DNA of 64,000 bases, taken from positions 16,394 through 80,393 of the forward strand of contig CAZSQZ010000009.1 in the NCBI GenBank assembly GCA_964609215.1, given 5' to 3'. Each line of letters starts with the position of its first letter. Positions within the stretch are counted from its first letter, which is position 1. The notes below the pieces were generated by a model, which had not been told where the DNA came from, ran no database searches, and saw only the letters and a list, made by a program, of their open reading frames with translations. A program made the position numbers and the translations under genes. This document shows, one piece after another, positions 33,578 to 34,225 of the stretch. The stretch comes from an uncultured Flavobacteriales bacterium (GTDB taxonomy: Bacteria > Bacteroidota > Bacteroidia > Flavobacteriales_D > JABDKJ01).

Positions 33578-34225
33578 TTAACGGGCAAAATCCGTATACT
33601 TTATTTTGGTTATTACCCTTTCCCCTTTTCTATTGAATAATTCCGTTGTAGGCCTCATAATTAAGCCTTCAGCTATATAATCCGTATTCTCTGCAATGGT
33701 GGATTTGAAACCTTCTTTGACGAAAGCAATAGCTTCTTCAAGTTTCCAAATTCCCATGATGGGTACAATCCCAATATTTAATTTATTGGCGATGTCTTCA
33801 TTGGCTTCTCTATTCAACCAGAAATCTCCAATTTTTACATCGAACAAAATGAAGTCGGTCCGATCAGGAAGATAGTTTCCACCTCTTTGAATTTTTTTGC
33901 CATAACCTTCTCCATATAAGCAAACATTTGTTGCATCTGGAAAATGTTTTTGCATTTTTTCATTAGTGAATGTATCCTGAAGAACGGAAACTAAATGCGC
34001 AGGAATTTGTGCATTATCCGTTTTTCCTCCGAAACGAACTTTTATTCCATCCCACATGATTCTGATATTTGTTCCGTCAATTTTTTCGGTACAAATCCAG
34101 TTGATGTTCTTCAATAATTCGAATTCCGGTTTTGCCCAAGTTCCTTCTAGTAAGGTCTTGTGTTTATTTTTAGGATCTCTAAAAAACACCGTTTGAATTT
34201 TTTGGTATTGTTTCATTTCACTCAT
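33578..34225 (-). CDS. ATP-dependent RNA ligase, minimal nucleotidyltransferase-domain type (Rnl2/Rnl5-like)
   Basis: Covalent nucleotidyltransferase motifs in order: I TEKIDGTN, III LYGEGYG, IIIa FILFDV, IV AEGLIMR, V ITKIKYTDF. The ORF-track start 34270 overlaps tRNA-Arg, so I use ATG 34225 (MSEMKQ…). ATG 34216 is also possible. Confidence 0.75.
   Translation of the reverse strand: MSEMKQYQKIQTVFFRDPKNKHKTLLEGTWAKPEFELLKNINWICTEKIDGTNIRIMWDGIKVRFGGKTDNAQIPAHLVSVLQDTFTNEKMQKHFPDATNVCLYGEGYGKKIQRGGNYLPDRTDFILFDVKIGDFWLNREANEDIANKLNIGIVPIMGIWKLEEAIAFVKEGFKSTIAENTDYIAEGLIMRPTTELFNRKGERVITKIKYTDFAR

Follow-up and report, generated by a model that had tools for sequence, protein, structure and literature searches.

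The stretch of DNA analysed here, referred to below as the window, comprises 64,000 nucleotides (nt) of contig CAZSQZ010000009.1 (assembly GCA_964609215.1) from an uncultured Flavobacteriales bacterium. It contains a gene for a putative ATP-dependent RNA ligase, which lies beside an array of transfer RNA (tRNA) genes in the same island as a gene of another RNA ligase family, RtcB. The island consists, in order, of a WYL-domain gene, RtcB, a gene for a 225-amino-acid (aa) protein, an RlaP-family nucleotidyltransferase gene, a longer RlaP gene, terminator-like hairpins, the tRNA array, the ATP-dependent ligase, about 1 kb of structured non-coding DNA and an SPFH gene (Table 1). Everything is encoded on the minus strand except the divergent WYL gene, and the surroundings are those of a Bacteroidota genome bearing a type IX secretion system, as judged by Pfam from the open reading frames (ORFs) between 23.4 and 51.5 kb. 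A metagenomic sister taxon (L166) shares this order from DUF1361 to the homocysteine methyltransferase gene, with 10 tRNAs ahead of its ligase. G+C content is uniform across the island, and there is no compositional island. The locus is a conserved island for RNA repair and tRNA backup, and islands of this kind have precedent in the literature. We consider that the ligase is probably its second sealing activity, an ATP-dependent one that complements RtcB on RNA with 3'-OH and 5'-phosphate ends.

The longest form of the ligase ORF (33578..34270, minus strand; 230 aa) overlaps the tRNA-Arg gene (34243-34315), so the realistic starts are the ATG at 34225 (215 aa, MSEMKQ...) and the ATG at 34216 (212 aa, MKQYQK...); a database protein (P0001) that is 100% identical to the window ligase has 212 aa, as do most homologs, and nearly all homologs fall within 210-220 aa. 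Depending on which of these two starts is used, 17 or 26 nt separate the start codon from the 3' end of tRNA-Arg, near the 20-30 nt estimated in the initial annotation. That annotation had described a protein of about 215 aa with ligase motifs, and the ORF is real, with every motif that was quoted present in its translation (TEKIDGTN, LYGEGYG, ILFDV, AEGLIMR and TKIKY). In the 212-aa numbering used throughout, the motif residues are K45 (I), K65 (Ia), E103 (III), F125-D126 (IIIa), E183...R188 (IV) and K204/K206 (V); about 40 residues stand ahead of motif I, and the C-terminus follows motif V by 6 residues. The description of the gene as embedded inside the tRNA array is accurate in that it lies directly 3' of tRNA-Arg, but the gene stands at the array's 3' border: the eight genuine tRNAs are all upstream, and downstream there are tRNA-like elements only. 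The protein is 88% identical to its L166 sister copy and the DNA 87%. Because dN/dS, the ratio of nonsynonymous to synonymous substitution rates, is 0.09 at a dS of 0.66, the gene is functional and maintained by purifying selection.

Pfam returns a single match for the ligase, to PF09414 (RNA_ligase; 65.1 bits against a cut-off of 27; E=1.1e-17), covering residues 42-209 and profile positions 2-171 of 171. Since this one match spans the protein in that way, the earlier statement that there is no extra OB, polynucleotide kinase (PNK) or phosphatase domain is upheld. Rnl2 ranks first among the NCBIfam models, with the Rnl2 equivalog at 36.6 bits against its cut-off of 197 and TIGR02306 (DRB0094) at 20 bits against 151, and among PHROGs the match is to phrog_548 'RNA ligase' (E=7e-25), aligned only at profile positions 3-233 of 341, that is, the nucleotidyltransferase part of phage Rnl2. 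The solved structures matched by the sequence with HMMER are T4 Rnl2 entries only. In that alignment the T4 Rnl2 residues E34, K35, T39, N40, E99, F119, D120, E204, K225 and K227 are identical in the window ligase, whereas D, K and R stand in place of H37, R55 and K209; K45, K65, E103, F125-D126, E183/R188 and K204/K206 of the ligase thereby align with K35, R55, E99, F119-D120, E204/K209 and K225/K227. K35 is the lysine of T4 Rnl2 that accepts AMP. Across 31 family members, the positions of the catalytic motifs are invariant or nearly so.

The fold points the same way. A model built with AlphaFold (AF2) from the 31-sequence family alignment (predicted local distance difference test, pLDDT, 84; predicted template modelling score, pTM, 0.81) has the nucleotidyltransferase fold on structure comparison. 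It scores 18.0 against the nucleotidyltransferase domain of T4 Rnl2 (1s68), 17.1 against full-length T4 Rnl2 (2hvq), 15.3 against Naegleria NgrRnl (Rnl5) and 15.0 against trypanosome REL1, compared with at most 12.4 for DNA ligases and at most 9.8 for capping enzymes, and Foldseek ranks the structures in the same order. Profile and fold searches alike thus put Rnl2 first, and not the DNA ligase or capping families, which bears out the placement among RNA ligases proposed from the first reading.

The accessory domains that define the known RNA ligase families are not present. The signature C-terminal domain of the Rnl2 family (about 85 aa in T4 Rnl2) is missing according to the profiles and the position of the sequence end; T4 Rnl2 depends on this domain for the steps that come before the phosphodiester bond is formed at a 5'-phosphate nick, and for REL1 a partner protein supplies it in trans. 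The alignment and the AF2 model contain no N-terminal OB-like domain, the defining domain of Rnl5 enzymes such as Naegleria NgrRnl and Deinococcus DraRnl (about 126 aa in DraRnl) (PMC4408790, PMC1807946). Neither the family-specific C-terminal or dimerisation domains of Rnl1, Rnl3 and Rnl4 nor an OB domain of the DNA ligase or capping type was found, and the best profile and fold matches lie elsewhere. Judged from sequence and model, the catalytic domain is Rnl2-like, and by published domain-based definitions (PMC4408790) the protein stands outside all of Rnl1-5. Compared with T4 Rnl2, the window ligase has a conserved 40-residue N-terminus of its own, besides the D/K/R substitutions at H37/R55/K209. 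Two elements are invariant in the 31-sequence alignment: positions Y4, K6, I7, T9 and R13 in the N-terminal strands, and a loop between motifs III and IIIa (I109-Q110-x-G112-x-N114-Y115), which is disordered in the AF2 model. These are candidates to replace the functions of an accessory domain; in the N-terminal fragment of REL1, loops substitute for accessory-domain contacts (PMC4599027).

The stand-alone build is widespread. At least 7,943 of the 8,000 candidates scored in a word-indexed protein search were significant, and among the 120 matches listed PF09414 is the sole Pfam domain in all, with nearly all being 209-221 aa long. An exhaustive HMMER search of 1.84 billion cluster representatives (clusters defined at 50% identity) found 894 clusters at E<=1e-30 and 2,095 at E<=1e-10; about 87% of the best 150 are no longer than 250 aa. 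The family is present in Bacteroidota, Cyanobacteriota, Desulfobacterota, Gammaproteobacteria, Verrucomicrobiota and others, the genome loci having been found by an alignment-based scan (a single-sequence scan of genome contigs gave none). It is also carried by 158 confirmed IMG/VR loci and by GenBank phages, for example the crAss-like phage cr116_1, IAS virus, Lak megaphages and Streptomyces phages such as SparkleGoddess. In annotated phage records, including two that were inspected, a gene of 215-242 aa is labelled 'RNA ligase'. These phage genes (about 215-240 aa in cr116_1, IAS virus, SparkleGoddess and relatives, and Lak megaphages; PHROG 548) belong to the same family and share the stand-alone build, with full-length identities of 37-52%; they differ in lying in phage genomes, and the flanks of the two records inspected have no annotated tRNA, RtcB or RlaP. 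A further 94 Klebsiella phage matches were rejected as members, being canonical full-length Rnl2 with 26% identity. The window ligase is therefore a further member of a known family, already annotated as 'RNA ligase' but biochemically unstudied. The minimal build noted in the initial annotation is not special to this locus; it is the norm in a very large phage and bacterial family whose members mostly lack tRNAs, RtcB or a fixed partner.

Among these loci there are striking combinations of the ligase with RtcB and tRNA arrays, which are phylogenetically independent and occur in at least four phyla. In a gammaproteobacterium (L051), six tRNAs are followed by RtcB and then the ligase. A locus of the Akkermansiaceae (L077, 5297-11173) has 10 tRNAs, Ro60/TROVE, RtcB, the ligase and an HNH gene, and another verrucomicrobial locus (L050, 1298-4439) has Ro60, HNH and the ligase. 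The ligase adjoins RtcB in a member of the Blastocatellia (L034), and loci of Chryseolinea (L004, L005, L007, L014) have WYL, SPFH and RtcB genes together with a tRNA-flanked ligase. In phages, the ligase lies within tRNA clusters (L147, with 16 tRNAs, L149 and L125).

Table 1. Features of the island in the window, with positions, strand and means of identification
Feature	Position	Strand	Identified by
RNA ligase, nucleotidyltransferase domain alone, 212 aa	33578..34216	-	ORF listing, Pfam, NCBIfam, structure match, fold model
WYL/WCX-domain transcription regulator, divergent from RtcB	40112..41140	+	Pfam
Divergent RtcB-family protein, 461 aa, N-terminal extension	38641..40026	-	Pfam E=1.6e-35
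225-aa protein, family unassigned, all-alpha helical repeat	37962..38639	-	no Pfam, NCBIfam or PHROG match; AF2 pLDDT 94.6
RlaP-family Pol-beta nucleotidyltransferase, 248 aa	37204..37950	-	PF10127 E=6e-61
Long RlaP-family Pol-beta nucleotidyltransferase, 356 aa	36137..37207	-	RlaP E=2e-25; phrog_388 full length
Terminator-like hairpin GCACCTC-CTCGT-GAGGTGC + T9	35468..35495	-	read by eye
Degenerate tRNA-like genes at array head	35198..35455	-	
8 intact tRNA genes: Cys-GCA, Tyr-GTA, Gln-TTG, Leu-TAG, Leu-TAA, His-GTG, Phe-GAA, Arg-ACG	34243..35192	-	
207-nt tRNA-shaped non-coding RNA	33190..33396	-	folding, nhmmer, RNAalifold, covariance model
Two tandem 'T-arm / hairpin / D-arm' tRNA-like modules	32834..33013	-	Rfam scan, comparison with L166
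SPFH/Band-7 protein	31451..32551	-	Pfam; syntenic in L166

The RtcB gene and the two RlaP genes form part of one same-strand gene cluster, which is syntenic in L166. The Pfam match of the RtcB protein covers residues 185-441 only, and the best NCBIfam model reaches 76 bits against a cut-off of 407; its N-terminal extension of about 75 residues has a faint likeness to the C-terminal domain of tRNA nucleotidyltransferase (E=0.046). The 225-aa protein has a conserved CxCC motif and a conserved block, TTFG-x3-D-x-KHFLPRILEL. Its homologs are restricted to Flavobacteriia, and the Aquimarina gene sits between WYL and RtcB; the protein accompanies WYL and RtcB in a conserved manner and is probably an RtcB accessory factor. 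The SPFH gene is linked to RtcB and WYL in Chryseolinea lacunae (L007) as well.

A terminator-like hairpin (35468..35495) divides the RtcB/RlaP operon region from the tRNA array. A scan for sigma-70 promoters, which is uninformative for Bacteroidota, gave 12 sites against 11.8 expected from shuffled sequence, and it missed this terminator hairpin that is visible by eye. Certain spacers in the array are just 3-4 nt long, and CCA is not encoded. Disrupted Pro-like (34909-34956) and Glu-like (34574-34680) copies are interspersed among the intact tRNAs. Compared with the intact L166 genes, the Glu(TTC) copy (34574-34680, minus strand) is interrupted at the anticodon by about 50 extra nt and its T-loop is shortened, while a Ser(GCT) homolog at the head of the array (35198-35312, minus strand) carries an inserted hairpin of about 27 nt in its T-loop and, owing to a 1-nt deletion, an anticodon loop of 6 nt; the two copies may be decaying genes or insertion-bearing variants. 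A T-arm-bearing element lies next to the latter, at 35317-35455 (minus strand). The L166 array contains intact Ser-GCT, Pro-TGG and Glu-TTC genes and a tRNA with a UUA (ochre-reading) anticodon at 7655-7728, whereas in the window the Ser, Pro and Glu copies are disrupted and there are additional Cys and Phe genes; the composition of the array is thus in flux between the two. The Leu-TAA (34474-34548, minus strand) and Leu-TAG (34685-34759, minus strand) genes are each 75 nt long, without the long variable arm that is usual in bacterial tRNA-Leu; the Leu-TAG gene and its L166 counterpart are 100% identical over the 75 nt compared.

On the other side of the ligase, the 370 nt past the gene (approximately 33480-33110) are about 98% identical to L166, compared with 87% for the ligase gene at the DNA level. 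This segment contains a tRNA-shaped non-coding RNA (ncRNA), which is followed by a strong hairpin at 33160-33187. Its fold comprises an acceptor-like stem of 7 bp, a D-like arm and an extra hairpin, with a central domain of about 105 nt taking the place of the anticodon arm, together with a variable hairpin and a canonical T-arm. Copies are found in L166 (8838-9044), Aquimarina (L170, 6778-6988) and Chryseolinea lacunae (L007, 6287-6493). The nhmmer searches located the Aquimarina copy between the WYL gene and an operon of RtcB and a 236-aa homolog of the 225-aa protein, and the C. lacunae copy between WYL and an SPFH-RtcB operon. RNAalifold predicts 46 pairs for the four sequences, 22 of them with compensatory double changes across three lineages, and the acceptor stem is wholly rewritten in each lineage. 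Under a covariance model, the four copies reach 204-240 bits, compared with only 15-25 bits for ordinary tRNAs. No Rfam family reaches its threshold on the ncRNA, and exact-pattern scans of the metagenome and viral collections gave no matches. All four copies, from Bacteroidota, adjoin WYL and RtcB genes. This ncRNA and the modules described below belong to the WYL-RtcB system and not to the ligase family. The 207-nt RNA could be a sensor, decoy or cofactor RNA of such systems, and these tRNA-like RNAs may well be a more novel feature of the locus than the ligase.

The two tandem modules further downstream (32834-33013) also have an anticodon-like arm and a long variable arm, and have no acceptor stem. 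Their matches to the YrlA (Y RNA-like) model, 28.6 and 17.3 bits, are below the gathering threshold of 69, and the tRNA model gives 24.5 bits; their stems show compensatory changes relative to L166.

The initial annotation had pointed out that no end-healing enzyme is encoded nearby. This is confirmed: a scan of 46 of the 64 window ORFs of at least 90 aa, which takes in all such ORFs between 20.5 and 51.5 kb and so the island, detected neither Pnkp, Hen1 or RtcA nor a polynucleotide kinase or 2H phosphoesterase. The absence of a nearby end-healing enzyme generalises to most of the ligase family. Two candidates within the island were rejected: the 225-aa protein, the one product in the island without an assigned family, whose fold is a helical repeat and not a kinase or phosphatase, and a kinase or phosphatase domain hidden in the 356-aa RlaP protein, of which phrog_388 'nucleotidyltransferase' covers residues 11-347. 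The sole phosphoesterase seen among the scanned ORFs is a stand-alone calcineurin-like protein (Metallophos_2, E=2e-31; 21877-22386, minus strand), whose gene neighbours one for a tRNA pseudouridine synthase (PF01416) and lies outside the conserved island, separated from the ligase by 11 kb with unrelated genes between them. The published activity of RlaP is to extend an RNA 3'-OH by one or two nucleoside monophosphates, and according to the authors who described this activity, the product fits 5'-phosphate ligases and not RtcB (PMC12776372). The suggestion that the nucleotidyltransferase paralogues provide the missing end-remodelling step needs correction in that RlaP does not perform classical end healing: it yields a 3' end compatible with the ligase, but it neither removes a 3'-phosphate nor phosphorylates a 5'-OH.

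The further proposal that the two ligases serve different break chemistries follows soundly from known enzymology. ATP-dependent ligases require 3'-OH and 5'-phosphate ends, whereas RtcB requires a 3'-phosphate or 2',3'-cyclic phosphate and a 5'-OH; metal-dependent nucleases, such as PIN-type toxins, leave 3'-OH and 5'-phosphate ends. With its Rnl2-like nucleotidyltransferase domain alone, the ligase would be competent to join 3'-OH and 5'-phosphate RNA, tRNA presumably included, using ATP. Because only 17-26 nt separate it from tRNA-Arg, which leaves no space for a promoter of its own, it is likely to be co-transcribed with the upstream tRNA array, and tRNA processing would free its mRNA. The island would act as a WYL-regulated response to RNA damage in which the array gives spare tRNAs, RtcB handles breaks with 2',3'-cyclic-phosphate and 5'-OH ends, and the RlaP enzymes restore lost 3' nucleotides and leave a 3'-OH. 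The ligase would then seal what RtcB cannot, namely nuclease-made 3'-OH/5'-phosphate ends and ends rebuilt by RlaP.

Several points weigh against this division of labour. Rnl2-type enzymes favour nicks in duplex RNA over anticodon-loop breaks. The route from RlaP to the ligase is incomplete for 5'-OH breaks, with no 5'-kinase among the ORFs scanned. The window ligase has R188 where more than 90% of the family (31-sequence alignment) has the motif IV lysine, and no biochemical characterisation of any 212-aa member was found in the literature searched. Among the loci whose flanks were adequate, 7 of 62 from genomes and 9 of 78 from viruses have a tRNA no more than 1 kb from the ligase, and 5 of 61 from genomes, 1 of 27 from metagenomes and none of 76 from viruses have RtcB in the flank. 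The family is mostly solitary, and much of the linkage in the window could be specific to the lineage. Lastly, T4 Rnl2(1-249) and NgrRnl without its N domain seal only pre-adenylylated ends and are poor at steps 1 and 2 (PMC4408790).

Under another reading, the ligase, with or without the tRNA array, would be a phage-derived passenger that is uncoupled from RtcB and RlaP and acts on other RNA substrates. Phages use such ligases against host anticodon nucleases, and the family is abundant in them, as the IMG/VR and GenBank members attest. The closest homologs outside the lineage, 78-83% identical, lie in phage-like contigs without tRNA arrays, and clustering of the neighbours within 5 kb at 80 genome loci gave no universal partner gene, with no family common beyond close relatives. 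A passenger is nevertheless unlikely in view of the preserved synteny of the island, the strong purifying selection on the ligase, the uniform G+C content, which gives no sign of recent import, and the independent occurrence of the ligase beside RtcB and tRNA arrays in at least four phyla. Rather improbable, too, is an enzyme that is incomplete and either seals pre-adenylylated 5' ends only or needs a partner in trans, for which an RNA-binding protein or the adjacent tRNA-like ncRNA would be candidates by analogy with REL1 and KREPA2. That truncated Rnl2 and Rnl5 are confined to step 3 (PMC4408790), that the reagent 'T4 Rnl2 truncated' acts likewise (PMC7790460) and that a hyper-conserved ncRNA lies directly downstream would all suit it. 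However, a family that is solitary, without a partner gene and under purifying selection argues for an autonomous enzyme; the conserved N-terminal 40 residues and the invariant III-IIIa loop could stand in for the missing domain, as the REL1 fragment illustrates (PMC4599027); and the ncRNA does not accompany the ligase elsewhere. A role other than RNA ligation in vivo, as a DNA ligase, as a capping-type enzyme or in adenylylation of RNA 5' ends alone, is very improbable. The covalent-nucleotidyltransferase fold is generic and motif I reads KxDG, as in DNA ligases, but DNA ligases and capping enzymes score clearly below Rnl2, Rnl5 and REL1, the sole Pfam family is RNA_ligase, the NCBIfam DNA ligase match has E=0.008 over about 30 residues, and there is no OB domain.

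The reading of the ligase as an ATP-dependent complement to RtcB has consequences beyond this locus. All of Rnl1-5, that is, every biochemically defined family of ATP-dependent RNA ligases, need an accessory domain, and truncated Rnl2 and Rnl5 cannot finish ligation; that a huge and conserved family of ligases without such a domain exists in nature thus raises the testable question of whether they work autonomously. An island with the ligase, RtcB, two RlaP proteins and spare tRNAs is a good model for the repair of tRNAs that have lost nucleotides, and a good place to seek the RNA 5'-kinase or 3'-kinase that such repair requires. This is tempered by the facts that the family is already annotated as RNA ligase and that the link between tRNA arrays and RtcB has published precedent. 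A bolder combination can be put forward tentatively, and we doubt that all its parts hold together: the 212-aa proteins would be a sixth, autonomous and 'ancestral' stand-alone architecture that carries out all three ligation steps by means of the N-terminal strands and the III-IIIa loop; here they would be the missing sealing partner of RlaP that closes tRNA breaks after RlaP has restored the absent nucleotides, and the ncRNA would be a damage sensor or decoy for WYL. If true, this would resolve the incompatibility between RlaP and RtcB ends raised by the RlaP authors.

Known systems share parts of the island. In the RtcB/RlaP operons of Burroughs & Aravind 2016, as recounted in PMC12776372, RtcB and RlaP are likewise linked, and 5'-phosphate RNA ligases occur in other RlaP operons. 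Compared with the operons in that account, for example Pseudomonas rtcB-rlaP-rtcA, the window has WYL instead of RtcR, no RtcA and two RlaP paralogs, and it adds a tRNA array, an SPFH gene and the tRNA-like ncRNA. In Anabaena, TrcR represses a silent tRNA array (the trn L-array) along with rtcB and the gene for a slipin, an SPFH protein, and all of these are switched on under translational stress (PMC8421152, PMC10272220); there the components are dispersed and no ATP-dependent ligase has been described, whereas the window unites all of them in one Bacteroidota island. The Salmonella rsr-yrlBA-rtcBA locus (Ro60, Y RNA and RtcB) resembles the window in placing tRNA-like non-coding RNAs in an RtcB repair locus, and the Akkermansiaceae locus unites Ro60, RtcB and a family ligase. 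The window differs from the Salmonella locus in having no Ro60 and in that its ncRNA is closed by an acceptor-like and not a Ro-binding stem, the best YrlA score in the region remaining at 28.6 bits against 69. The HNH gene beside the tRNA array of the Akkermansiaceae locus echoes the neighbourhood of the cyanobacterial L-array (PMC8421152).

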